Below the pieces are notes generated by a model. It made no database searches and had not been told where the DNA came from. It saw only the letters and a program-made list of their open reading frames with translations. A program made the position numbers and the translations under genes. From assembly GCA_964515275.1 (NCBI GenBank), contig CAZESU010000002.1:1-52643 (forward strand): DNA of 52,643 bases. Direction: 5' to 3'. Position 1 is the first letter of the stretch. The number at the start of each line of letters is the position of its first letter. Origin of the DNA: an uncultured Oscillospiraceae bacterium (lineage in GTDB: Bacteria; Bacillota; Clostridia; Oscillospirales; Oscillospiraceae). Shown here in pieces: positions 7,755 to 49,734 of the stretch.

Positions 7755-8016
7755 GGTTCCGCCCTCCTGTCAAGTGATTTACCTTTGCAGAGTATACAAC
7801 CATATGCCGCCGCTGTCAAGTATTTTTTCTTGTCAGCACAGATTATTTTGCATCAAACGGTTTCCGCATATAAATGCAAAGCATGGGAAAAATGTAAATA
7901 CCATCATTGGACAGTGGGAAATATGCCTGACAGCGGCTCACTCAGGCGCTTTGCCGACCGCCGAAAACCGTGTTTCCCCTTGTCCACGGATGGTAAACCT
8001 CAAACAGGAGGAAAGC

Positions 8017-11000
8017 ATGGATAACCACAGTTTGTCATATATAAGCGATGAAAAATTAGCCGCCTTTGCGGCCTCGGAGGCAAGGCTTCTGCGCCCGGAC
8101 GGTACTGGCTCTGCCCGGCACTGCACGGAGCTGATGAAACGGAGCTTTTCCCTGATACAGCGTACCCACGAGGTCATATCCCGCCGCTACGGTGGCCAGC
8201 CCTCCGTGCCTGCCGCCTGTGAATGGCTGCTGGACAACTGGTACATGGTGCAGCGGGAATACCGTTTTGCCCGCTCGGGGCTGGCTTGTGCGCGGTGCCT
8301 CCGGCTCTGCGGTGACCTGCCCCTGATTTTCGAGCTGTGCCGCGCTCTGCTGCATGCCGGACAGGGAGCCGTGGACGAGGAGCGCTGCGCGCTGTTTCTT
8401 CAGGGCTTTCAGACCGTGACGGTGCTGCGGCGAAGTGAGCTGCTGCTGTTCCCTGCCGCCCTGCGCGCCGCCATAACGGAGGGCATTGCCCAGGTATGCA
8501 GCAATATGCAGTACGCCTCCGACACCGGAGAGTACGCAAAGGAGCTGGAGGCTCTTTTCGGCACTCTTCGGCTCTTCTCCGTGCTGGACACAGAAAAGCT
8601 GATCTCCCAGTCGGATGTGACCGAGGCCATTCTCTCCAAAGACCCCACCGGCGACTATCCCAACATGGACAGCGGCACCAAGCAGGACTATCTGGCCCGG
8701 CTTGAGAAGCTGGCCCGGTCTCAGGGGCTGGAGGAGCATGTGCTGGCCCGCCGTTTTATCAAGCAGGCGGAAGAGGATCGGCGGCATGTGGGCTTTTATC
8801 TCTTTGACCGGAGCAAAGGCCGGGGTGCCGGGCTTTACATCGGCGCGAATATCCTCCTCACCCTGTTTCTGAGTCTGCTGCTGTCCTTTGCCGTGGGCAG
8901 TCCCGCAGCGGCACTGCTTTTGCTGCTGCCGGTATCGGAGCTGGTAAAGAGCCTGCTGGATTTTCTTCTGCTCCAGTTTGTTCCGTCAAGACGCCTGCCC
9001 AGAATGGACACGGAAAAGGGCGTGCCCCCGGAGGGCAGAACCATCTGCGTTCTCTCCGCCCTGCTGACCTGCCCGGACAGTGGCACACGCCTTGCCTCCC
9101 GGCTGGAGGAATTTCGCCTTTCCAACCGCAGTGCCGGGAAAAACCTGTGCTTCGGTATTCTGGCGGATCTGCCCGCCGCGGATGCGCCCGAGGTCGAGGG
9201 AGACGAAAGAATCCTCCGCGCTGCCCGCACAGCCATCAATGAGCTGAATATCAAATACGGCGGCGGCTTTTACCTTTTCACCAGAGAGCGCAGCTTTGAC
9301 GGAGAGCGCTACACCGGAAACGAGCGAAAGCGCGGCGCACTGCTGGAGTTGAGCAAGCTGCTGTGCGACAGAGAATCCGCCCTTCAGGTCACCGGAGACA
9401 GGGACGCGCTGGTGGGGGTGCGGTATATCATCACGCTGGACAGCGACACCCGCATGTATCCCGGCGCGGCCTCAGAGCTGATCGGTGCCATGCTCCATCC
9501 CCTGTGCACCCCCAAAGTGGACCCCCAGCGCCATATCGTGACCGAGGGCCATGCCCTGATCCACCCCAGAATGAGCACCGAGCTTCAAAGCGCGACCTAC
9601 ACCGATTTTGCCCTGATTTTCGCCGGTGCCGGGGGCAGCGATCCCTACGGCGCATTGTGTGGCGAGCTGTATATGGACGCCTTCAAAAGCGGCGGCTTTG
9701 CCGGCAAGGGGATTTTGGACGCAAAGGTGCTGCTCCAGTGCAGCGAGGCCCACTTCCCTGCCGGCTGCATCTTGTCCCACGATGCGCTGGAGGGAGCCTA
9801 TCTCCACGGAGCCTTTATGGGCGATACGGAATTTTCCGATAGCTTCCCCTCAAAGCCCCTGTCCTACTACAAGCGCCTCCACCGCTGGGTTCGGGGCGAC
9901 TGGCAGAATGCCCCCTGGATTTTCCGCAGCGGCAAAGACCTGACGGATATCGACCGCTGGCGGCTGCTGGACAGCCTTCGCCGCAGTCTGATCCCGCCTG
10001 CCACTCTTCTTGCCATACTGGCGGGCTTCTTTCTGCCGGTAACGGGGCTCACTCTTGCGGCCTGGGCGGCGCTGCTGGCCCTTTTGAGCAGGCTCTTCCT
10101 CTCCTTTGCAGAGGGCGGGCGCAGGAAACACGAGCGTGTGCCCCTGCGCCGCTACACCAGACTGCTGACCGGCGTGGGCGGCGCCATCGTACAGACCTTT
10201 ATGCGTCTGTGGCTGCTGCCTTTTGAGGCGTGGATCTGTCTCTCTGCCGCCGTTACCGCCCTGTGGCGGATGCTGAAAAGCCGCAAGAAGCTGCTGGAAT
10301 GGGAGACTGCCGCCCAGAGCGACAGCAAGACCGGCGGGCTGACCGCCTATGGAAAGGCCATGTGGTTCCCCATGCTGATCGGCGCGCTGTGCCTGCTGCT
10401 CTCCCCGGTCATCATCGGCAGATCCTCGGGACTCATGTGGCTTTTGTCCCCGGCGGCAGCGGCGGCGCTGGCTTTGCCCGCTCACCGGGAATACGCCCTC
10501 AGCCGGGCGGACAGGGATTACCTGAAAAACCGGGTGCTAAAGACTTGGCGCTATCTGCGGGAGTTCTCGGGGAAAGAGGACAACTACCTGCCCCCGGATA
10601 ATTTTCAGGAGCAGCCGCCCATAGGAGCTGCCCACCGCACTTCGCCCACCAATATTGGCCTTGCGACAGCCTCTGCCGTGGCGGCGATGGACATGGAGCT
10701 GATTCCGGCTCGGGAGGCCGTGGAATATATCGACCGCATGGCGGACACATTGCTGCGCATGCCCCGATGTCTGGGCCACTACTACAACTGGTATGACACC
10801 CGTACCCTCCTGCCCCTGCACCCGGCCTTTGTCTCCACTGTGGACAGCGGCAACCTGTATGCGGGGCTTCTGGTGGCGGCAGATGCCATGGAAGAGCTGG
10901 GGCAGCGGGAGCTTTCCGCAAAGCTTCAAAATATCATGGAGCCCATGGACTTTTCGCCCCTGTACGATGCGGGCAGGGGGCTTTTCTATATCTGCTACGA

Positions 11001-14000
11001 TGCCGCCAAAGAGCGGGGTGCCGGCGGCTGGTACGACCTGATGGCGAGCGAGGCCATGCTGACAAGCTACATCGCCATTGCCAAGGGGGATGTGCCCAAA
11101 AAGCACTGGCGCAGGCTGAGCCGGGCTCAGCTCCAGAAGGACGGCTACCGGGGCCTTGCCAGCTGGACGGGCACCATGTTTGAATACCTGATGCCGGAGC
11201 TGTTTCTGCCCCTGTACCGGGGCAGTCTTCTGTACGAGAGCAGCCGTTTCTGCCTTTACGCCCAGAAGCGCCGGGTTTTTGCGGGCAAGCCCTGGGGCAT
11301 TTCGGAGAGCGCCTTTTTCTCTCTGGACAACAGCCTCAACTACCGCTACAAGGCTCACGGCTGCCCCGCCCTGGCTCTGAAACGGGGGCAGGAGGACGAC
11401 ATGGTGGTCTCTCCGTACAGCAGCTTTCTGGCCCTGTGCGTGGAGCCCGAAAGCGCCGTCAGAAATCTGCATCGGCTGGAGCGTTTCGGCGCTCTGGGCC
11501 GCTACGGCTTTATTGAGGCGCTGGACTTTACGCCGGGCCGCTGCCGCAGTGACAGCGGAGAACCGGTGCGCTGCTATATGGCCCACCACGCGGGCATGAG
11601 TATTCTGGCAGCGGCAAACGCGGTAAATGAGGGCTGTGTTCAGCGGCGGTTTATGTCCAACCCTGCCATGTCCGCCCACTGCGCCATGCTGCAGGAGCGG
11701 CTGCCGGAGAACGGCATCGTCATCCGCCGGGACCTGTCCCCTGTGCCGGAAAAGCCGGATCGGGCTGCGCCCTGCCGCTGGCAGAAGCGGGGCGGGCAGG
11801 AGAACAGCGGCAGCTGTGTCCTGTCAAACGGAGCCTACGAGATGCTTCTTGACTCGCAGGCTCAGGGCCGGGCCAAATTCGGAGGCCGCCTTATCTATAT
11901 GGAAGCCCCCGAATTCCGGCTGGACCGGCAGAAGCTCTTCCCCTCAAAGGCAGAGCAGTGGGAGTTTTCCGAGGACAAGTGCAGCTATCGGCAGAGCCTT
12001 GAAGGGCTGGAATGTGAGCTGACGGTGTCCGCCGCCTCAGGAGACTGCGGGGAACTCCGCAGTCTGCAGCTTCGCTCCATGGGCGACAGAAGCCTGCGTC
12101 TGCGCTTTTCCTTTGTGCCGCTGCTGGCGGCTTATAAAGATTATGTAAACCATCCCGCCTTCTGGCGACTGGGCATTTGGGCGGTGGCGGAGGAGAGCTG
12201 CCTGTATCTGCGCCGGGTACGCCGGGGCGGCAGAGGTGAGATGTGGCTTTGTCTTGCCTGCGACAGGCGGGCGGCGTTTTCCGCCGATAAAAGGGGTAGT
12301 CTCGGCTGGCTTTCTCAGCCGGAGGTAACGGCGTCCGTTGCTCTGACCCTTGAGGGCGGAGAGCTGACTGCCGTGCGCTTTGCCCTCTGCGCCGCCTTTA
12401 CCCGAAAGGAGGCCCGAGACGGCGCAGCCAGGATACTGGCCGCCTCGGAGCTGGAGTGTGGCAGCATGGTCAGCGCCTCCGCCACGCTGCTGGGGCTCAG
12501 CGCCGGAGAGATCGGCGCCGCCATGGACATGCTGCCCTACCTGCAAAGGCCTCAGCTTTATCAGGCGGAGCCTGCAAGGGATTTGTGGCAGTACGGCATC
12601 TCCGGCGACCTGCCCATTATCTGCTGTGAAAGCGGGGCAAAGGAGGCGGAGAGCCTGCTCATGCGCTTCTGCCTGCTGAAAAGCTGCGGCGTGTCCGCAG
12701 ATCTTGTGTATCTCAGCGACGAGCAGGGCGAATATCAGCGGCCCTTTTTCCGCCGCATCAGCCAGATGCTGACCCGCTATTCCCTTGAGGCGCTGATCGA
12801 CAGCCTCGGCGGCGTACACTTCGTGCCGCTGAACGCAAAAGACCTGATTCTCAGCCGCTCCGCTTACGCCGTAGGCCACGAGCGCGAGACATGCCCGGAG
12901 GCTCCCGCGCCGGTATTCGGCGGTCCCAGAGAGCAGGGCGCCGTCCCCGAATACCAGCATACAGGCAGAGCTTTTGAATATGATGTAGACCAAAATCTCC
13001 CTGCAAAGCCCTGGCAGCTTATCCTGACCAACGGACGCTTCGGCTATATTGCCGCAGACTGCGGCAGCGGCAGCATGTGGTTTGAAAACGCACGGGAGAT
13101 GCGCATCAACGCCCCTGCCCCGCTGCCGGAGGAGATTGCCGGCAGCGAGGCGCTGTGGCTTGAGACGGAGTGGGGCCGCATCAGCCTCTTTGCCGCAAAC
13201 GACGGTCATCCCTGCACCGTCAGCTTCTCGCCTGGCCTTGCGGTCTGGGAAAAGGAAGTGGTCGGCAGGCGCATCAAGACCAGCGCCTTTATTCCCAGCG
13301 GCATGGATGCCAGAGTGTTGATTATCGAGGGCGCCGATGACATGAATCTTTACTGGTCGCTCCGACTGGTGCTGGGAGCGGCAGACGGCAGCGCGGTGCT
13401 GTGCCGCAGTGAAAATGAACTGTTTCGGGCAGAGAACCCGGAGAGCTATCTGCCCGGCACGGTATTCCGCGCCGGCTGCTCCTCCTCCGCGCTGATCCGA
13501 TGCGACTATGCTCCCGCCGCCATGTTCATGCGCTGCACCTGCCAGCACATTACGGTACTGGTCTGCGGCTGCTGCGATGAGGCGGAGATGAAGGAGCTTT
13601 GCCGCCCCAGCCTTGCCCTTGCGGCGCTGGGCGCTGCCACCTCCCGTTGGGCAGCCTTGCTGGACAGGCTGGAGGTGCACACAGACCAGCGGGCCCTGGA
13701 CGCCTATATGAACGGCTGGGCGGCTTATCAGACCATCGCCTGCCGTCTGGAGGGCCGGTGCAGCCTGTACCAGAGCGGCGGCGCACTGGGCTTCCGGGAT
13801 CAGCTGCAGGACGCGCTGAACGTGCTGCTGCTGACGCCGGATTACGCCCGGGTGCAGATTCTCGCCTGCTGCCGCCACCAGTATGTAGAGGGGGATGTGA
13901 TGCACTGGTGGCATCCTCACCCGAACGGCGACAAGGGCGTGCGTACCCGCTGCTCCGACGATCTGCTTTGGCTCACCTGGGCGCTGTGCCGCTATGTGGA

Positions 14001-15054
14001 GGCCACCGGAGACGAAGACATCTGCTTCCGGGAAGAAAATTATGTAAACTCACCTGTCCTGTCCGCCGTGGAGCGTGACCGCTACGAGTGCCCGGAGAGA
14101 TCCGATATGAGCGCCTCGGTGCTGGACCACGCCAAGGCCTCACTGGAGCGATGCATTGCCAGAGGCTTCGGCAGTCACGGTCTGCCATACTTCGGCAGCG
14201 GCGACTGGAACGACGGTCTGGACGAGGTGGAGGGCGAGAGTGTGTGGCTGGGCTGGTTTTTCTCCTGTTGTGCAGCCATGTTTGCCGGGCTGCTTGAGCG
14301 CCTGGGCCGCCCCGGTGCGGAGCGCTACCGGACCTTTTCTCAGCAGGCGGCAGCCGCGGCGGAGGCCAGCTTCAACGGGCGCTGGTATCAGCGGGGAATG
14401 GCGGAAAGCGGCGAGCCCTTGGGCGGCGGGGAACGGATCGACTCCATTGCCCAGAGCTGGGCCGCCCTGTGCGAAAGCAGTGAAAACGAGCATGTGGATA
14501 CCGCCCTTGAAAATGTATTATGTAAACTTGTTGACCGTAAGAACCGACTGGTCAGGCTCTTTGATCCGCCCTTCTCGCCGGATGAACCCTATCAGGGCTA
14601 TATCTCCAGCTACGGGGAGGGCTTCCGGGAAAACGGCGGACAGTACACCCACGGGGCCATCTGGCTGGCCATGGCCTGTTTTCGCCGGGGGCGAAGCGAT
14701 GCGGGCTTTGAGATATTGAACCTGCTGCTGCCGGAGAATCACGATCTGAGCGTATACGGCGGCGAGCCCTTTGTACTCTCGGCGGACGTATACGCCGCCC
14801 CGGGACATGAGGGAGAGGCGGGCTGGACCTGGTACACCGGCTCCTCCGGCTGGTACTTCCGGGTAGTGGCCGAGGAGATGCTGGGTCTGAGACTCCGGGA
14901 TGGGAAGCTGTATATCAGTCCCAACCTGCCTGCTGCCATTGACGGCTACACCGCCCTTTGGACGGATTTCTCCGAAACGCCTCACCGCATTGAGGTGAAA
15001 GGGGAAGAAATCACCGTGGACGGGGAGAAATATTTCGGTCAGGGTCTTGGTTAA
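8017..15054 (+). CDS. Cyclic beta-1,2-glucan synthase-like multidomain protein (GT84-like glycosyltransferase, TM segments, glucoamylase-like barrel, C-terminal GH94 phosphorylase-like domain)
   Basis: 2345 aa from the ATG at 8017 (AGGAGGAAAGC RBS; the track start 7774 runs through the promoter region). GT motifs IITLDSDTRMYPG, ILSHDALEGAYL and RWVRGDWQN. Hydrophobic blocks before and after the GT domain. Central TSPTNIGL, YNWYDTRTL, VSTVDSGNL and FEYLMPELFLP. C-terminal GH94-like FRDQLQDALN, HWWHP...GVRTRCSDDLLWL and GSGDWNDGL. Confidence 0.85.
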   Translation: MDNHSLSYISDEKLAAFAASEARLLRPDGTGSARHCTELMKRSFSLIQRTHEVISRRYGGQPSVPAACEWLLDNWYMVQREYRFARSGLACARCLRLCGDLPLIFELCRALLHAGQGAVDEERCALFLQGFQTVTVLRRSELLLFPAALRAAITEGIAQVCSNMQYASDTGEYAKELEALFGTLRLFSVLDTEKLISQSDVTEAILSKDPTGDYPNMDSGTKQDYLARLEKLARSQGLEEHVLARRFIKQAEEDRRHVGFYLFDRSKGRGAGLYIGANILLTLFLSLLLSFAVGSPAAALLLLLPVSELVKSLLDFLLLQFVPSRRLPRMDTEKGVPPEGRTICVLSALLTCPDSGTRLASRLEEFRLSNRSAGKNLCFGILADLPAADAPEVEGDERILRAARTAINELNIKYGGGFYLFTRERSFDGERYTGNERKRGALLELSKLLCDRESALQVTGDRDALVGVRYIITLDSDTRMYPGAASELIGAMLHPLCTPKVDPQRHIVTEGHALIHPRMSTELQSATYTDFALIFAGAGGSDPYGALCGELYMDAFKSGGFAGKGILDAKVLLQCSEAHFPAGCILSHDALEGAYLHGAFMGDTEFSDSFPSKPLSYYKRLHRWVRGDWQNAPWIFRSGKDLTDIDRWRLLDSLRRSLIPPATLLAILAGFFLPVTGLTLAAWAALLALLSRLFLSFAEGGRRKHERVPLRRYTRLLTGVGGAIVQTFMRLWLLPFEAWICLSAAVTALWRMLKSRKKLLEWETAAQSDSKTGGLTAYGKAMWFPMLIGALCLLLSPVIIGRSSGLMWLLSPAAAAALALPAHREYALSRADRDYLKNRVLKTWRYLREFSGKEDNYLPPDNFQEQPPIGAAHRTSPTNIGLATASAVAAMDMELIPAREAVEYIDRMADTLLRMPRCLGHYYNWYDTRTLLPLHPAFVSTVDSGNLYAGLLVAADAMEELGQRELSAKLQNIMEPMDFSPLYDAGRGLFYICYDAAKERGAGGWYDLMASEAMLTSYIAIAKGDVPKKHWRRLSRAQLQKDGYRGLASWTGTMFEYLMPELFLPLYRGSLLYESSRFCLYAQKRRVFAGKPWGISESAFFSLDNSLNYRYKAHGCPALALKRGQEDDMVVSPYSSFLALCVEPESAVRNLHRLERFGALGRYGFIEALDFTPGRCRSDSGEPVRCYMAHHAGMSILAAANAVNEGCVQRRFMSNPAMSAHCAMLQERLPENGIVIRRDLSPVPEKPDRAAPCRWQKRGGQENSGSCVLSNGAYEMLLDSQAQGRAKFGGRLIYMEAPEFRLDRQKLFPSKAEQWEFSEDKCSYRQSLEGLECELTVSAASGDCGELRSLQLRSMGDRSLRLRFSFVPLLAAYKDYVNHPAFWRLGIWAVAEESCLYLRRVRRGGRGEMWLCLACDRRAAFSADKRGSLGWLSQPEVTASVALTLEGGELTAVRFALCAAFTRKEARDGAARILAASELECGSMVSASATLLGLSAGEIGAAMDMLPYLQRPQLYQAEPARDLWQYGISGDLPIICCESGAKEAESLLMRFCLLKSCGVSADLVYLSDEQGEYQRPFFRRISQMLTRYSLEALIDSLGGVHFVPLNAKDLILSRSAYAVGHERETCPEAPAPVFGGPREQGAVPEYQHTGRAFEYDVDQNLPAKPWQLILTNGRFGYIAADCGSGSMWFENAREMRINAPAPLPEEIAGSEALWLETEWGRISLFAANDGHPCTVSFSPGLAVWEKEVVGRRIKTSAFIPSGMDARVLIIEGADDMNLYWSLRLVLGAADGSAVLCRSENELFRAENPESYLPGTVFRAGCSSSALIRCDYAPAAMFMRCTCQHITVLVCGCCDEAEMKELCRPSLALAALGAATSRWAALLDRLEVHTDQRALDAYMNGWAAYQTIACRLEGRCSLYQSGGALGFRDQLQDALNVLLLTPDYARVQILACCRHQYVEGDVMHWWHPHPNGDKGVRTRCSDDLLWLTWALCRYVEATGDEDICFREENYVNSPVLSAVERDRYECPERSDMSASVLDHAKASLERCIARGFGSHGLPYFGSGDWNDGLDEVEGESVWLGWFFSCCAAMFAGLLERLGRPGAERYRTFSQQAAAAAEASFNGRWYQRGMAESGEPLGGGERIDSIAQSWAALCESSENEHVDTALENVLCKLVDRKNRLVRLFDPPFSPDEPYQGYISSYGEGFRENGGQYTHGAIWLAMACFRRGRSDAGFEILNLLLPENHDLSVYGGEPFVLSADVYAAPGHEGEAGWTWYTGSSGWYFRVVAEEMLGLRLRDGKLYISPNLPAAIDGYTALWTDFSETPHRIEVKGEEITVDGEKYFGQGLG

Positions 15055-22858: not shown

Positions 22859-23501
22859 CTATCCCGCCACCGGCGGGCGGCCGGCGGCGGCGAATACCTC
22901 ATCTACGTTGAAAAACAACTCGTTCAAGATGTCCCTGTAATAGGTCATGGAGTAGCCGCCGATCTCCATGCGGGACAAGAGGGCATAGTCCGGGTTGATC
23001 TCGTTATACACCCTTCTGTCCACAGTGCAGTAGATCTCATACTAAAACTTATTAAAATGGTTAAAAACCGTTTTATAGTGCGAAGCGCGTTAAGTTTTTA
23101 TGAGACGTAAATTGTGCCTACGGCACAATTTGAGCGTGCACAGCACGTGGGATTTTTGATTAAACTTTTTAATCAAAAATCAGTATCAAAGCCCGCGTCG
23201 GGAATACACTGCAGGGTGGGCTGCTGCACCCGGTAGCCAAGGGGAGCAATGAAGAGTCTGATCTTCCCGATACAGGGCTTCACATGATCCACCCATTTAT
23301 TGATGTCATAGCTGATCTTCTCTACCGTACAGCCGGAATTATAACCGCCCATGGGGGTAAGCTTATCCGTGAAGATCCGCTCCGGCTAGACAATCAGGCT
23401 GTGGAAAAAGATGTGGCGCACATCCCCCGTATAGCCCAAGGCTGTCCATCTCCGCATGGATGGTGGCACACGCCGCCATGCGCAAGACGCAGCTTTTTCA
23501 T
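22859..23501 (-). pseudogene. Disrupted ORF (possibly polysaccharide-deacetylase-like): in-frame TAG plus a MITE insertion
   Basis: Reverse frame reads ...GYTGDVRHIFFHSLIV*PERIFTDKLTPMGGYNSGCTVEKISYDINKWVDHVKPCIGKIRLFIAPLGYRVQQPTLQCIPDAGF [146-bp repeat] EIYCTVDRRVYNEINPDYALLSRMEIGGYSMTYYRDILNELFFNVDEVFAAAGRPPVAG*. The function call rests only on the HIFFHSLIV.PE..F motif. Confidence 0.6.
23040..23185 (+). mobile_element. MITE-like repeat, copy A (146 bp), flanked by TCA/TCA
   Basis: TACTAAAACTTATTAAAATGGTTAAAAACCGTTTTATAGTGCGAAGCGCGTTAAG...GATTTTTGATTAAACTTTTTAATCAAAAATCAGTA. Flanking TCA at 23037-23039 and 23186-23188. AT-rich against GC-rich surroundings. Confidence 0.85.
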
Positions 23502-31114: not shown

Positions 31115-32134
31115 ATGAGAGCAGCAATCTATAATGGTCAGAAAAATGTTCCTATCTGTCAGTTGGCAGACCCTGTCTGCGGAGACAACGATATTATTGT
31201 AAAAAATCTGTATGCCAGCATCTGCGGTACAGATGTGGCCGTTTATAACCACGGACCTAATACCGGGCAAAAGATCACCGTCGGCGGCGAATTCGGGCAC
31301 GAGGTGGTGTCTCAGGTGGTGGAAGCCGGCAAAAATGTGAAAGATATCACCGTTGGGGATATTGTCTATCCCTATCACTGCTGGCAAAAGGCGATCCCGG
31401 CCGTGCCGGGACGATCGGCGGTTTTTCCGAATATATTCTGTTTCCGACTGTGTACTGAACCGCCAGGTCTACAAGATCAGTGAGCGGATTCCCACCAAAA
31501 TGGCCGCGTTGATTGAACCCTTTACTGTCGGCACCCGGGCCGCCCGCAGAGGTATGCCTGTGCCCGGTGAAAACGCTGTGGTATTTGGGGCGGGCACCAT
31601 CGGGGTTGCCGCCGCGCTGGCGCTGAAGCATATCTTCGGCTGCAGGCAGGTACTGATCTCCGACCTGTCCGAATTTCGGCTGGAAAAAGCCCGGGCTTTG
31701 GGTCTTGAGACCTGCAGTGCCGCTGAGCCGGATCTGCGCGGCAGGCTGACGCAGATATTTGGAGCGGCCCACGGGCTGGACGGAATGACTGCGGATGTGG
31801 ACATCTTTGTGGATGCCGCAGGTGCCGCCAGTATTCTGGACACCTTTATGAAAGTGGGCAAGATCGGCAGCCGTTTTGTGGCAGTGGCGGTAAACAAGGC
31901 GCTGAAGGAAGTGGACATTCTGCACCTGACCTATGCGCAAAAAGTATTGTCGTCTCCGGCGGCTACATGCCGGAGGTTGTGTGGGATGTACTGGCTCTTA
32001 TGGAGAGCGGCAAAGCGGACATTGGCTCCATCATTACCCACGAATTCCCCCTGGCAGAGCCGGGTAAGGCCATTGAAATGGCCACTGATACGGAACATTC
32101 GCTGAATATTGTGATCAACCACAGCATCGGCTGA
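31115..32134 (+). pseudogene. Zinc-dependent medium-chain alcohol/polyol dehydrogenase with three frameshifts
   Basis: Frame 1: MRAAIYNG...CGTDVAVYNHGP...GGEFGHEVVSQVVEAGKNV...GDIVYPY. Then LLAKGDPGRAGTIGGFSEYILFP in a second frame. Then DCVLNRQVYKISERIPTKMAALIEPFTVG...VVFGAGTIGVAAAL...LTYAQK in a third. Then SIVVSGGYMPEVVWDVLALMESGKADIGSIITHEFPLAEPGKAIEMA...NHSIG* after a further shift at the A5 run near 31937. Confidence 0.85.
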
Positions 32135-32151: not shown

Positions 32152-33190
32152 ATGTTTAAGCTGTTGATTCTGGAAGATGACCGGGATCTGAACCGCGCCG
32201 TCTGTACCTACCTGAACCAGAACGGCTACGAGGCCATCGGCTGTCTGAGTGCAAGCGAGGCATACAACGCCATGTATGGCAATCTGTTTGATCTGATCAT
32301 CTCCGATATTATGATGCCCGGCGTGGACGGCTTTGACTTTGCCAGAACCGTGCGGGAGCAGAATCAGGATATTCCCATCCTGTTCATGTCCTCCCGGGAC
32401 GATTTTGCTGCAAAGCAGCAGGGCTTTCGCATTGGGATCGACGACTATATGGTAAAGCCCATCGATCTGGATGAGCTGTTCGGAACAGAGACCCTGCGCA
32501 CAGACTTCATTGCCAACGTGTCCCACGAGCTGAAAACGCCCCCTCGCCGTCATGCGAAATTACGGCACCATGCTCCGGCAGCCGGATCTGCCGGAAGAAA
32601 AGCGTATCGAATATGCGAAGGCCATTACGGACGCCTCCCACCGTCTGGCTGATTTGATCTCCAACATTTTAAAGCTCAGCAAGCTGGAAAATCAGCAGAT
32701 CTTTCCGGCAGCCGAGAGCTACGATCTTGTGGCGCAGCTTTGTGAATGTCTGCTGGGCTTTGAGGAGCTGTGGGAGAAGAAGGAGCTGGAGATTGAGACG
32801 GATATTGCCGACGGTGTCATGGTCAAGTCCGATTCGGAAATGATGAGCCTTGTATGGAGCAATCTCTTCTCCAATGCCATCAAATTCACCGAGCCAGGCG
32901 GCAGGATCGGGCTGACGCTCCAGGCAGAAGAGGATATGGCTGTTGTCCGCATCTCCGACACGGGCTGCGGTATTTCCCGGGAAGTGGGCGCCCATATGTT
33001 TGACAAGTTTTATCAGGGAGACACCTCCCACGCCGCCCAGGGTAACGGCCTTGGGCTTGCTCTGGTTAAGCGCGTTATCGACATTACAGGAAGTGCGCTC
33101 GATGTGGAGAGCGAAGTGGGGAAAGGCTCTGTCTTTACCATAAAAATGCGGAGGATTCCCGATGGAGAAGCTCAAAAGACTGCTGATTGA
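32152..33190 (+). pseudogene. Response-regulator receiver domain fused in frame to a histidine-kinase core (HisKA + HATPase_c), then broken by a frameshift
   Basis: REC: MFKLLILEDDRDLN...LIISDIMMPGVDGF...DDYMVKPIDLDELF, joined directly to the H-box TLRTDFIANVSHELKTP. The frame is lost at the C5 run near 32545. It resumes as AVMRNYGTMLRQPDLPEEKRIEY...NAIKFTEPGG...DTGCGIS...GNGLGLALVKR...GKGSVFT. Confidence 0.75.
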
Positions 33191-34261: not shown

Positions 34262-34906
34262 ATGACACGGGGCGGAGGCCGAAACCGGGATCAGGTGGAA
34301 TTCACAAGTTTGGATGAATTGGTGCCGGAAGATCATTTGGTGAGGAAACTGGAGAACGCCATAGATTGGAGCTTTCTCTATGAAATGGTGGAGGAGAGCT
34401 ATTGCGAAGATAACGGACGCCCGAGCCTCGACCCGGTGATCCTGATCAAATTGCCGGTGGTGCAGTATATGTTTGGGATTCGAAGCATACGGCAGACGAT
34501 TCAGGAAATTAAGGTGAACAATGCATAGCGATGGTTTCTGGGCATAGGGCTGCGTGATCCCGTGCCGCATTTCAGCACCTTTGGGAAGAATTACAGCAGG
34601 AGATTCAAGGATACAGATTTGTTTGAACGAATCTTTCAGAAGATATTAAGCGAGTGCATGAAGGCAGGCCTGGTGGATGGATCCGTAGTATTTGTGGATT
34701 CGACTCACGTAAAGGCACGAGCCAACAGCAGGAAGTATACAGACGAACTGGCCGAGGAACAGAGCCTGTGGTATGAGAAAGAACTACGGGCAGAGATCGA
34801 CCGGGATCGGGAAGCGCAAGGGAAGAAGCCGCTGAAGGATAAGGAAAGCTCCGTTAGGCAATTCCTTTTTCATAAAACCAAACGGTTTTATAAAAAACAG
34901 TATTAA
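34262..34906 (+). pseudogene. IS1182-family transposase, N-terminal ~195 codons only, with an in-frame TAG
   Basis: LVPEDHLVRKLENAIDWSFLYEMVEESYCEDNGRPSLDPVILIKLPVVQYMFGIRSIRQTIQEIKVNNA*RWFLGIGLRDPVPHFSTFGKNYSRRF...VFVDSTHVKARAN matches the conserved DUF772/IS1182 N-terminus. The TAG at 34526-34528 replaces the conserved Tyr of AYRWFLG. The catalytic DDE half is missing. Confidence 0.85.
34841..34902 (+). repeat. Partial repeat (module M of the MITE family), copy F
   Basis: AAGGAAAGCTCCGTTAGGCAATTCCTTTTTCATAAAACCAAACGGTTTTATAAAAAACAGTA followed by TTA. Near-identical to 46116-46176 and 43340-43389. Confidence 0.75.
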
Positions 34907-38663: not shown

Positions 38664-39131
38664 TTATTCGGCACTTTTCTCTTCAGGTTTTCTCATGCTG
38701 TGCTGGAGCATCTGGTAGAGGCCCTCATGGTCATCGTAAAATTTCTGGAGTTTCTCGGATATGCTGTTCCAATAGGCATCCGCCTCCTGCTCTCTGGCGC
38801 GGCAGCGCTCCTCTGTCTTCAGCAGCATGGCTCTGGCTTTCTTTTTGCTCTCCGCCTCCATGCGGGCGCAGACCTGCTCCTGCTCGCCACTGAGCCGCTG
38901 GATATTTTCAAGGTACTGCTTCGCAGCCTCCTCCGCTGCTTCAAACACCCCGCTGAGACGGAGTGAGGCCTCCGCAATGGAACCCGCCTTGTCTATCAAT
39001 ATCTGTCGATCGGCCAGCTTGGCATTTGCCTCGTCAAGCAGGGATTGCAGCTCGTCTATCTTTTTGCTCTGCTCAACGAGCAGCTCCAGAAGTTCGACCC
39101 GATTCAGTTTTTTCAGCTCATTGTCCGTCAA
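38664..39131 (-). CDS. Coiled-coil protein, function unknown
   Basis: 155 aa. Heptad-rich and charged (LKKLNRVELLELLVEQSKKIDELQSLLDEANAKL...). No catalytic motif recognised. Confidence 0.6.
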   Translation of the reverse strand: MTDNELKKLNRVELLELLVEQSKKIDELQSLLDEANAKLADRQILIDKAGSIAEASLRLSGVFEAAEEAAKQYLENIQRLSGEQEQVCARMEAESKKKARAMLLKTEERCRAREQEADAYWNSISEKLQKFYDDHEGLYQMLQHSMRKPEEKSAE

Positions 39132-39247
39132 TTTGATCAGCTCCGCATCTTTTCGGTATATGTTGGAATTATATCACATTCTATCCTGTCTGTGCAAGAC
39201 TCTTAACATTATTGTTGCAGTGAACGAAACTTTTTCTGCTGTTTTTA

Positions 39248-39393
39248 TACTAAAACTTATGAAAACGGTTAAAAACCGTTTTATAGCGCGAAGCGCGTTA
39301 AGTTTTTATGAGACGTAAATTGTGCCTACGGCACAATTTGAGCGTGCACAGCACGCGGGATTCCTGATTAAACTTTTTAATCAGGAATCAGTA
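39248..39393 (+). mobile_element. MITE-like repeat, copy B (146 bp), flanked by TTA/TTA
   Basis: TACTAAAACTTATGAAAACGGTTAAAAACCGTTTTATAGCGCGAAGCGCGTTAAGTTTTTATGAGACGTAAATTGTGCCTACGGCACAATTTGAGCGTGCACAGCACGCGGGATTCCTGATTAAACTTTTTAATCAGGAATCAGTA. TTA at 39245-39247 and 39394-39396. Confidence 0.85.
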
Positions 39394-39410
39394 TTAACAG
39401 AGAGAGCAAA

Positions 39411-39745
39411 ATGAAGAACGATTACCTTATTGAAAAACCTCCCCCTGCCGGCTCTGCTGGTATTTTCGCTGCCTATAATCATGGCAACCTGTTCCAGCAG
39501 CTGTATACCACGGCGGATTCCGCTATCATAGGTCGCTATGTGGGTGAGCAGACTCTTGCCGCCGTGGGCGCGTCAAACGCGCTCACCATGGCGTTTATCT
39601 GCGTTGCCATCGGAGGCGGTACCGGCGCATCGTGATGGTGATCCGTCACTTCGGTGCAAAGGAATACGGCAAAATGCGTCTTGCGGCAACCGCCGCAGCA
39701 AGTGGCTCGATATGCTTGCCGGATCAAGCCGCAAAAAACGAATAA
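39411..39745 (+). pseudogene. MATE-family efflux transporter remnant (first ~100 codons, multiply frameshifted, then truncated)
   Basis: GNLFQQLYTTADSAIIGRYVGEQTLAAVGASNALTMAF...GGGTGAS is the MATE N-terminal signature. The preceding TITLLKNLPLPALLVFSLPIIM and following VMVIRHFGAKEYGKMRLA segments lie in other frames. No further MATE sequence before the terminator. Confidence 0.75.
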
Positions 39746-39780
39746 CGCCCTGCTGTCTGAAGACAGCAGGGCGTTATTTT
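39741..39780. terminator. Bidirectional rho-independent terminator
   Basis: AATAACGCCCTGCTGTCT-GAAG-ACAGCAGGGCGTTATTTT. Confidence 0.75.
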
Positions 39781-40198
39781 AACTCATCAGTTCACGGAGT
39801 TTTGCCTTTACAGCATCAAGGGCTTTGTCGGGCTCATCAATATTCCATACGGAACCCTCCATCGGGCAAAGGCCGGTGTTGGTGCGGTTCTGGATAGCAG
39901 CTACCTTTTCATCCCATCCCGCTGCAATGCCGAAGTTCCGAAATACTTCCGCCGCCGGTACGCTGATGACCCCGGCGTGTACCTCTTTCACCCCAAGCAG
40001 CACATACAAAAATGCTGCAGCTTTGCCCACAACTCTGTCCGCCGCGCTGAAGCCCTTGACATTTTCGCCCCGGTTCAAAAGCTCCAACAAGGGCTTTACT
40101 CCTCTGTCATTGCTTGAATATACCTGTTCTCCGCCGCAGATCACACAGGTGTATCCGCCCTCGGAAAGGAGCCTTTTCGCTTTTTCCAAATCATTCAT
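39779..40198 (-). CDS. DUF1893-family protein (TM1506-like)
   Basis: 139 aa. LLSEGGYTCVICGGEQVYSSNDRGVKPLLELL...DRVVGKAAAFLYVLLGVKEVHAGVIS...CPME matches the DUF1893 pattern as I recall it. Confidence 0.65.
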   Translation of the reverse strand: MNDLEKAKRLLSEGGYTCVICGGEQVYSSNDRGVKPLLELLNRGENVKGFSAADRVVGKAAAFLYVLLGVKEVHAGVISVPAAEVFRNFGIAAGWDEKVAAIQNRTNTGLCPMEGSVWNIDEPDKALDAVKAKLRELMS

Positions 40199-40330
40199 CT
40201 GTCTATTCCTCCATACGGACAGGATACAATATTGCCAGTTCCTTTGTCAACACAGCCTGAAAATTTTCAAAAAAAGAGCTTGACAAATTAATTGCATCTG
40301 CACGCAAATTTCTTGTCATGCCATGATGAC

Positions 40331-40375
40331 GAAAAAGACAGCACACAGCCCGCTTTCGCCTTGCCGTGTGCTGCC
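40331..40375 (-). terminator. Rho-independent terminator of the metal-efflux operon
   Basis: The minus strand reads GGCAGCACACGG-...-CTGTGTGCTGTC followed by TTTTTCGTC. Confidence 0.65.
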
Positions 40376-40447
40376 TTTACTGCGGTATGCCCTGTCGCCT
40401 GGTCGTTAACTAAGTGACGTTGTGCAATGCAGGTTTTTTTGTCCCTT

Positions 40448-43300: not shown

Positions 43301-43389
43301 TACTGATTCTTGATTAAATTTTTTAATCAGGAATCAGTATTAGGCGGTTCCTTTTCTATAAAACCAAACGTTTTTATGAAAAAACAGTA
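43301..43389 (+). repeat. Composite partial repeat, copy E: 39-bp palindromic mini-element plus module M
   Basis: TACTGATTCTTGATTAAATTTTTTAATCAGGAATCAGTA (43301-43339), then TTAGGCGGTTCCTTTTCTATAAAACCAAACGTTTTTATGAAAAAACAGTA, followed by TGAGAG. Confidence 0.75.
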
Positions 43390-43525
43390 TGAGAGGGAAT
43401 TGCTGCAAATTGCAGAAAATGCCTGCTGCAACCGGCGGTTGACAAATAGAACAGCCGGCTTTCTGGCCTGCAACAGCCAATTATGGTAGTCTTTGTTCAG
43501 AATTTGAGGCAAAGGAGACGTTCAA

Positions 43526-46002: not shown

Positions 46003-46019
46003 TTTTCCTACACTCCTTA

Positions 46020-46260
46020 TACTAAAACTTATTAAAACGGTTGAAAACCTTTTTATAGCACCGCAGGTGCGTTATGAACTGTATGAGACGACTTATGCGG
46101 CAATCTTCCGCAAAAGGGAAGCGCCGTTAGGCGATTCCTTTTTCATAAAACCAAACGGTTTTATGAAAAACAGTATGAGACGTAAATTGTGCCTACGGCA
46201 CAATATGAGCATGCACTGCACGCGGGATTCTTGATTAAACTTATTAATCAAGAATCCGTA
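46020..46260 (+). mobile_element. MITE-like repeat, copy C (241-bp long variant with extra module M), flanked by TTA/TTA
   Basis: Same termini as A, B and D (TACTAAAACTTATTAAAACGG...AATCAAGAATCCGTA). A 95-bp additional segment lies between two copies of GTATGAGACG (46081-46090 and 46173-46182). TTA at 46017-46019 and 46261-46263. Confidence 0.85.
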
Positions 46261-46926
46261 TTAAAGCAGATTTTTCTTATACAGGATACGAGACACCGCC
46301 AGAGTAAACAGCACGCCTACAGGAACCATGATACCCACCGTACCCGAGTTCATGGCGGGGACAAAGATGAACAGGAGCAGCATCAGCGTCACGGGGGCAA
46401 TGGCGATCTTCCAGTTCTTTGAGATGAACACCACACCCAGACCGCCGAACAGGGCGGGCACGATCTGTGCGAAAGCCGGGGCCAGCACCGGGGAGTTCAG
46501 CACGGGAGTCAAGGGGGTTATCAGGATAACGCCCAAAATGATGATAACGGTCGTCACAATGCTGGACATGGCGATGGCGATGGTGGATACGATCTCTCCC
46601 TCCTCGGAGTTGATCTTTACGTCCGCCTGCTCAAGGGCGTTGAGCGCTACCGGCAACTTCAGGTTTGAGACATTGCCGGTTACAAAGGACAGATAGGAGC
46701 CGCCGGCGCCCAGCATCGGCACATAGGTAAAGGTTTCGATCACCGCAACTGCCCAGTACATGGGTGCCGTTGCGATGACGCCCATGAGAAAGCCGTGCCA
46801 GTCAGGCGGTGCCTGATATATGATGCCCACGCTTATGGGGTACATGAAAAGGATCACCATTACGGAGAGATTCCAGATTCGTCCCGCTCTGTGGACGGAA
46901 TCCATATAAGTAAGATTGTTTTTCAT
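46261..46926 (-). CDS. Polytopic membrane protein, function unknown
   Basis: 221 aa, about 6 TM. Its stop codon (TAA, reverse of 46261-46263) coincides with the flank triplet of MITE copy C. Confidence 0.65.
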   Translation of the reverse strand: MKNNLTYMDSVHRAGRIWNLSVMVILFMYPISVGIIYQAPPDWHGFLMGVIATAPMYWAVAVIETFTYVPMLGAGGSYLSFVTGNVSNLKLPVALNALEQADVKINSEEGEIVSTIAIAMSSIVTTVIIILGVILITPLTPVLNSPVLAPAFAQIVPALFGGLGVVFISKNWKIAIAPVTLMLLLFIFVPAMNSGTVGIMVPVGVLFTLAVSRILYKKNLL

Positions 46927-49458: not shown

Positions 49459-49495
49459 AAACCTTCCATCCTTTTTTTCATTGGGCACATTGTAA

Positions 49496-49641
49496 TACTG
49501 ATTCTTGATTAAAAAGTTTCATCAAGAATCCCGCGTGCTGTGCACGCTCAAATTGTGCCGTAGGCACAATTTACGTCTCATAAAAACATCACGCGCTTCG
49601 CGCTATAAAACGGTTTTTAACCGTTTTCATAAGTTTTAGTA
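49496..49641 (-). mobile_element. MITE-like repeat, copy D (146 bp, inverted orientation), flanked by TAA/TAA on the plus strand
   Basis: The reverse complement aligns end to end with copy B. TAA at 49493-49495 and 49642-49644. Confidence 0.85.
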
Positions 49642-49734
49642 TAACACAGCAAAAAGCAAAGCTCAATAAAATTACGTCTATCTTTTATCTCGATAACGTG
49701 TTACAATATGAAATCATTTACCGGAGCGTTTAAT

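Follow-up and report, generated by a model that had tools for sequence, protein, structure and literature searches.

A hairpin-rich repeat was found in several copies in the window, i.e. the whole analysed stretch of 52,643 nucleotides from an uncultured Oscillospiraceae bacterium. Most probably (roughly 0.8) it is a miniature, non-coding and non-autonomous DNA transposon (MITE). Its small size, the missing coding capacity, the copy number, a 3-bp target-site duplication (TSD) and empty sites in a relative lead to this assignment, with an inverted repeat that is weakly developed. As a MITE the repeat is of an ordinary kind, apart from its strictly conserved six-helix fold and the missing transposase. 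Judged by sequence comparison, the 146-bp copies of the window represent a diverged subfamily of a 149-bp family which is frequent in metagenome contigs.

The repeat in the window and in metagenomes

For four full copies the coordinates of the first-pass annotation could be reproduced by direct reading and by repeat detection. Copies A (23040-23185, + strand), B (39248-39393, +) and C (49496-49641, -) have a length of 146 bp each, and copy D (46020-46260, +) comprises 241 bp. The nhmmer E values are 2.7e-30 for A, 1.1e-33 for B and 4.5e-33 for C. Repeat detection yielded pairwise identities of 94-97% between the four copies, and a 28-nt core is exactly present in 4/4 of them, with 0 occurrences expected (100 shuffles). 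As described before, all four begin with TACTAAAAC and finish with AATC(A/C)GTA. A search with the family HMM added nothing to the known copies and fragments; the inventory of the repeat in the window is thus complete. The reported lack of an open reading frame was also observed, with stop codons in all six frames of the elements (146-241 bp). Peptides from the six frames gave no match in a set of 5.8 billion proteins.

Copy D had been described as a 241-bp variant. The length is correct, but it is no simple length variant. It is a composite with the order left module, extra module (M2) and right module. The 92-bp module M2 (46084-46175, +) consists of TGAGACG, three hairpins and CAGTA, and the 10-bp direct repeat GTATGAGACG is found on either side of it. 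The two reported fragments, 43301-43389 and 34841-34902, are real and more structured than described, as they are made up of a palindrome and pieces of M2. Positions 43301-43339 hold a solo palindrome of two right ends (TACTGATTCTTGATTAAA / TTTAATCAGGAATCAGTA; no strand assigned; nhmmer E = 2.6e-06), with TAA to its left and TTA to its right. It is directly followed by a partial M2 (43340-43389, +) which finishes with CAGTA, and then, up to 43421, by a diverged start of a right module with TGAGAGG and a different hairpin. The second fragment (34841-34902, +) is the 3' part of M2, shows 94% identity over 62 nt to M2 of copy D and finishes with CAGTA/TTA.

The exact core of the window copies, GACGTAAATTGTGCCNNNGGCACAA, had no match in the viral, genome-representative and metagenome collections. 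Thus, the window subfamily appears to be lineage-specific. BLAST of the window copies against 1.25 Mb of Oscillospiraceae loci gave no hit. With the right terminal repeat alone one viral contig (L093) was matched, and a related element with TCA/TCA flanks was identified there. Metagenome contigs were scanned with a pattern of the terminal hairpin (GATTCYTGATT-N7-11-AATCARGAATC), and at least 120 metagenome stretches matched. The repeat is therefore not private to the source genome; its 149-bp relatives occur, among the matches listed, mostly in contigs labelled human gut. The median GC content of the fetched loci is 60%, and a few of them share 73-80% nucleotide identity with contigs of Oscillospiraceae metagenome-assembled genomes (both among the matches listed). 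The canonical element of the wider family has 149 bp, and at least 45 distinct sequences are collinear with the window copies. Conserved across the family are the ends, the TTTTTATAG linker, the TATGAGACG linker and the terminal hairpin, while the other stems are different palindromes.

Nested forms were detected in L093 and L130, where a 149-bp copy with a TGA/TGA duplication lies in the internal GTA/TGA/GAC junction of an older copy. The direct repeat GTATGAGACG around M2 is located at this same junction. Copy D appears to be a composite related to these nested-insertion forms.

An origin of the copies from assembly or cloning, such as an adaptor or vector sequence, is practically negligible. 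The copies differ by 3-6%, have unique flanks and possess relatives in dozens of independent assemblies, and no match was found in plasmid and phage records. Nothing in favour of such an artefact was found; the sole oddity is the conserved GAGACG, the complement of a type IIS site. No description of the family was found in the literature, which was searched by topic as well as by sequence string.

Target-site duplication and insertion sites

Every full copy in the window was reported to be flanked by identical triplets, and this applies to 4/4 copies. Copy A is flanked by TCA (23037-23039 and 23186-23188), copy B by TTA (39245-39247 and 39394-39396) and copy D by TTA (46017-46019 and 46261-46263). 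For copy C the + strand shows TAA (49493-49495 and 49642-49644), corresponding to TTA when read on the strand of the element. In an alignment with 10-nt flanks the similarity ends sharply at the triplets.

The same was found outside the window, well above chance. Among the matches listed, the two triplets agree in 47 of 59 unique flank pairs, compared with 19.5 expected from random pairing, and every flank triplet is of the form T-N-A. Of the 12 non-matching pairs, several of those inspected share one flank with another, matching locus of the matches listed. We infer that the 12 mismatched pairs result from chimeric metagenome assembly or from recombination between copies.

For 46 distinct sites with matched triplets (window and L093-L216, among the matches listed), TTA was counted 21 times, TCA 16 times, TGA eight times and TAA once. 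The surrounding bases are T at -2 (27/46), Y at -1 (32/46), R at +1 (38/46) and A at +2 (28/46), which results in the palindromic consensus target TYTNARA. The internal GTA/TGA/GAC junction fits this consensus; hence, the tandem and composite forms are explained. Read on the element strand, 37 of these sites have a pyrimidine as centre base of the TSD and nine have a purine, with 21 TTA facing one TAA. A symmetric DDE synapse would not predict such a bias.

The identical short junctions, together with the absence of a transposase gene inside the element, could also be understood as marks of a site-specific recombination substrate, integron attC-like or IS110-type, with the triplet as shared crossover core. 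This is very improbable, as the 46 distinct targets among the matches listed have nothing in common beyond TYTNARA. Moreover, the copies are dispersed in both orientations and form no cassette arrays, and their perfect hairpins lack the internal guide loops of bridge RNAs.

Precise empty sites, asked for in the first-pass annotation, were found for two copies. L001, a contig of a metagenome-assembled genome from an uncultured Clostridia bacterium, is syntenic with 38.6-52.2 kb of the window at about 82% nucleotide identity (range about 80-85%). It lacks the element at all four element sites of this region. For copies C and D, removal of the element and of one triplet leads to a gapless alignment with L001 across the insertion point. 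The sequences are GGGCACATTGTAACACAGC (window) and GGGCACATTTTAGCACAGC (L001) at site C and CTCCTTAAAGCAGATT (window) and CTCCTCACAACAGATT (L001) at site D. The claimed 3-bp TNA duplication thus held for the window copies, for the wider family among the matches listed and at two empty sites. A 2-bp TA duplication with shifted ends was considered as well and is excluded by the L001 alignments at sites C and D.

The sites of copy B and of the solo palindrome at 43301 are part of larger insertions relative to L001. In the first case the syntenic contig has 67 bp in place of 1.3 kb of the window (39154-40447). This stretch contains copy B as well as a MatE fragment of 74 aa (39411-39635) and, on the - strand, a DUF1893 gene (39779-40198). 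In the second case nothing comparable to 43340-43421 is present in L001.

The window is chromosomal DNA of an uncultured Oscillospiraceae or 'Candidatus Limivicinus'-like Clostridia bacterium, and ffh, trmD, ksgA and lgt are among its genes. No species representative searched has an M20 peptidase with more than 89% identity to that of the window. Searches for exact protein matches yielded a single Logan contig of 1.3 kb. All copies in the window are intergenic. Copies B and C lie in divergent intergenic regions, immediately upstream of gene starts on the same strand. Copy B is located between a divergent gene (38664-39131, -) and the MatE gene fragment (39411-39635, +), and copy C 38 nt upstream of the ATG (49458) of a methyltransferase gene. 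Copy D occupies an operon spacer from the stop of gene 46261-46926 to the start of the M20 peptidase gene, and the element is antisense to the operon. Stop codons are among the insertion sites; for instance, the right TTA of copy D (46261-46263) is the stop codon (TAA, - strand) of gene 46261-46926. The ortholog in L001 has a TGA stop at this position; therefore, the insertion of copy D hit a stop codon.

Some further features of the window were observed. Between 31115 and 33190 several genes are apparently split or truncated, as read from the translations only. One is an alcohol-dehydrogenase-like ORF, broken into 31115-31483 and 31353-32105; the others are pieces of a response regulator and a histidine kinase (32152-32652 and 32552-33190). 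They fit the picture of decaying genes in this half of the window. In an ORF of 2416 aa (7804-15054), GH94 catalytic and GH94 supersandwich domains occur together with a glucoamylase-like domain, similar to a cyclic beta-1,2-glucan synthase or phosphorylase.

Helices, ends and a putative mobilising enzyme

Five consecutive hairpins had been claimed for the interior of the repeat. They are real, near-perfect and have loops of 3-4 nt, but the tally was incomplete, as a sixth helix closes around the first two hairpins. This closing stem and the two hairpins form the left module, and three hairpins form the right module. The minimum free energy as RNA is -58.8 kcal/mol (z = -8.9), and the opposite strand folds nearly as well (z = -8.2). 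Both modules are separated by the nearly invariant unpaired linker TATGAGACG (39307-39315 in copy B). No other single-stranded segment of the family is as well conserved as this linker, which lies next to the hot spot of nested insertion. It contains GAGACG, the complement of the Esp3I/BsmBI type IIS site CGTCTC.

The helices are maintained by compensatory changes. In an alignment of 48 sequences from the matches listed, standard pairs are present in 98% of the helix cells. For 18 of 50 pairs both partners have changed (114 cells). No shuffle out of 500 reached this value, and controls with slid 3' partner gave 1-5 such pairs (matches listed). With RNAalifold 14 of 40 pairs were compensatory, again among the matches listed. 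The terminal hairpin is an example within the window, with TT/AA in copy A, CC/GG in B and CT/AG in C and D at the same two positions. For the third hairpin, window and main family have completely different palindromes. The fold is either under constraint or continually re-symmetrised by a palindrome-specific repair process.

The orientation of the element to its flanking genes was scored by a codon-phase GC test, since ORF-based calling is unreliable in DNA of 60% GC. Over 55 sites (matches listed), 17 right-hand genes are co-oriented and 16 opposed, and 18 left-hand genes are co-oriented and 11 opposed. The compensatory changes together with this random orientation suggest that it is the element itself, as DNA, which requires the hairpins. 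Furthermore, random orientation and the antisense position of copy D in its operon argue against a general strand-specific role as RNA. It is therefore quite unlikely that the repeat is primarily a structured RNA module (a mobile cis-regulatory element or the gene of a small RNA) whose fold is selected in the transcript. Strong covariation would fit such a module, as would the position of copies B and C directly before genes that start on the same strand. The wobble pairs point in the same direction: on the element strand about 37 G-U cells face eight C-A cells (11 and five positions, matches listed), which represent few independent events. A TATACT box at the junction of copy C could also be named in its favour, but the main-family junction reads TATACC, a poor -10 box. 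Near-perfect palindromes with 3-4-nt loops which fold equally well on both strands are not in line with a transcript-level function either. No match to known non-coding RNA families was found in the window at the Rfam gathering threshold (0 matches), in agreement with the first-pass annotation, and permissive Rfam searches of copy D and two canonical copies yielded nothing relevant.

The junction of copy C is part of a promoter-like site (49638-49666, -) which is aimed through the copy at the methyltransferase gene. TTA/TACT makes the -10-like TATACT, preceded by TG, and a -35-like TTGAGC lies 17 nt upstream in the flank.

The TACT/AGTA terminal inverted repeats that had been claimed are present. 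They have only 4 bp, whereas an imperfect repeat reaches further. Perfect inversion at the ends is limited to TAC(T)...(A)GTA, i.e. 3-4 bp, and left and right ends differ clearly. Read from the consensus, the left end is TACCAAAAC-CTG-TTAAAAAG; the right end, after reverse complementation, is TACTGATTCTTGATTAAAAAA. Both agree at about 14 of 22 positions with one gap, which gives an imperfect inverted repeat of about 21 bp starting with TAC. The terminal repeats are TACCAAAACCTGTTAAAAAG and TTTAATCAAGAATCAGTA in the main family and TACTAAAACTTAT and TTTAATCAGGAATCAGTA in the window. Each of them pairs with an internal inverted copy, on the left to form the stem that closes the left module and on the right to form the terminal hairpin.

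With its dense hairpins, compensatory changes in all helices, a very short perfect terminal repeat and unlike ends, the repeat could be taken for one of the single-strand HUH/Y1 elements (IS200/IS605-PATE or REP/BIME type). The hairpins would then be recognition structures and the triplets cleavage sites. The strand asymmetry of the triplet centre base would fit, and the solo palindrome after TACT resembles a REP unit. This explanation is hardly probable, because near-identical copies carry TTA, TCA or TGA with a match on both sides (47/59 against 19.5, matches listed), and a fixed right-end cleavage site would not vary with the target. In addition, the palindromic target context is that of a double-strand staggered cut, and locus clustering among the matches listed revealed no Y1 transposase as recurrent neighbour.

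For the MITE, the 3-bp duplication, the palindromic target and the free centre base point to a staggered double-strand cut of the DDE type. A transposase acting in trans would move the element and cut with a 3-nt stagger. Insertion takes place into T-Y-[T-N-A]-R-A and duplicates the central three bases. New copies also enter the internal GTA/TGA/GAC junction, which gives nested and composite forms. The most likely candidate for the mobilising enzyme would be a DDE enzyme of an IS5/PIF-Harbinger-like or an IS30-like type.

Searches for an autonomous copy covered left and right ends more than 300 bp apart, TNA-TAC...GTA-TNA pairs with similar ends at 0.5-3.5 kb and the clustering of nearby ORFs. 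Neither an autonomous partner nor a recurrent transposase was detected in 0.95 Mb of metagenomic flanks or in all 2.2 Mb of fetched DNA, with a scan pattern that needs both arms of the terminal hairpin and is biased towards MITEs. Also the transposase gene bounded by TACTGATTCYTGATTAA-type repeats, which the first-pass annotation had proposed to look for, was not found in the fetched DNA. The suggested link to IS5 and PIF/Harbinger agrees with the 3-bp TNA duplication; this is the one feature that carries the assignment, as no matching transposase was found.

The window has a single transposase, an IS1182/IS5-like pseudogene with DUF772 domain (34262-34850) which shows an in-frame TAG (34526-34528) and a deleted 3' half. 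It adjoins the M2 fragment at 34841-34902 and is fused to it at a 9-nt microhomology (AAGGAAAGC). The junction looks like a microhomology-mediated deletion. Intact relatives of the pseudogene are 86-88% identical, have the ends CTGTAGACAAAG and insert beside CTCAG hairpins with no TNA duplication. This transposase was rejected as autonomous partner, because the CTGTAGACAAAG ends of its relatives are unrelated to the repeat and no TNA duplication is made. In other metagenomes the intact relative of this transposase gene is interrupted in-frame (L083, 1075-1350; also in L084). The inserted element is unrelated to the repeat and about 270 bp long, has terminal repeats of 14 bp (AGGTAAAGGGAGTC) and a TTA/TTA duplication, and shows TTTTTGAGACG followed by a hairpin. 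It represents a second MITE family of related bacteria that duplicates TTA.

Another explanation is that an unrecognised enzyme or mechanism reads the folded hairpins, as DNA or as an RNA copy, and makes the 3-bp TNA duplication in a strand-asymmetric way, with the fold being essential. We consider this unlikely. If true, it would be a hairpin-reading mode of transposition distinct from classical DDE MITEs and from HUH hairpin elements.

Implications and comparison with known systems

If the MITE family is as widespread in Oscillospiraceae-like bacteria of the gut as the matches listed suggest, it would be an unannotated source of assembly breaks and chimeric contigs in gut metagenomes. It would also cause insertion polymorphisms next to the starts and stop codons of genes. 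Its many near-identical copies, with clear TSDs and strong covariation, would then provide a data set on why some MITEs retain an elaborate fold. Likewise, the identity of the transposase would add a TNA-targeting enzyme for poorly tractable gut anaerobes.

The PIF/Harbinger-IS5 (PHIS) superfamily has mostly 3-bp TSDs, TNA included, and bacterial IS5 elements show ANT rather than TNA (PMC4482050). The repeat resembles PHIS and the Tourist-like MITEs in the 3-bp TSD with free centre base (TNA, mostly TTA). It is also small, non-coding and multicopy and has imperfect terminal inverted repeats. It differs in its weak ends (about 14/22) and in its six conserved helices, which are no PHIS feature, and no IS5/PHIS transposase with matching ends was found.

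Structured bacterial MITEs are known with Correia of Neisseria, RUP and BOX of Streptococcus, ERIC, and bcr1 of the Bacillus cereus group. Like the repeat, they are intergenic sequences of 100-160 bp with short TSDs and extensive predicted folding, located near gene starts or ends. Their TSDs are TA in Correia, RUP and ERIC and TTTAT in bcr1, compared with the 3-bp TNA of the repeat. The repeat is further distinguished from these families by the absence of an Rfam match, by its host, Oscillospiraceae-like gut Clostridia, and by a fold with explicit covariation.

IS30-family elements have TSDs of 2-3 bp and prefer palindromic targets. Neither an IS30-type transposase nor matching ends were found for the repeat, so that this family is a candidate mobiliser only.

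With REP/BIME and the IS200/IS605 PATEs the repeat shares mosaic GC-rich palindromes, short flanking motifs, subterminal hairpins and the gain, loss and swap of modules. Those elements depend on a Y1 HUH enzyme and do not duplicate their target, whereas the repeat is flanked by a variable, matching 3-bp duplication. The IS110/IS1111-type elements with bridge or seek RNA use one RNA-matched target; the repeat, in contrast, occupies 46 unrelated sites among the matches listed.
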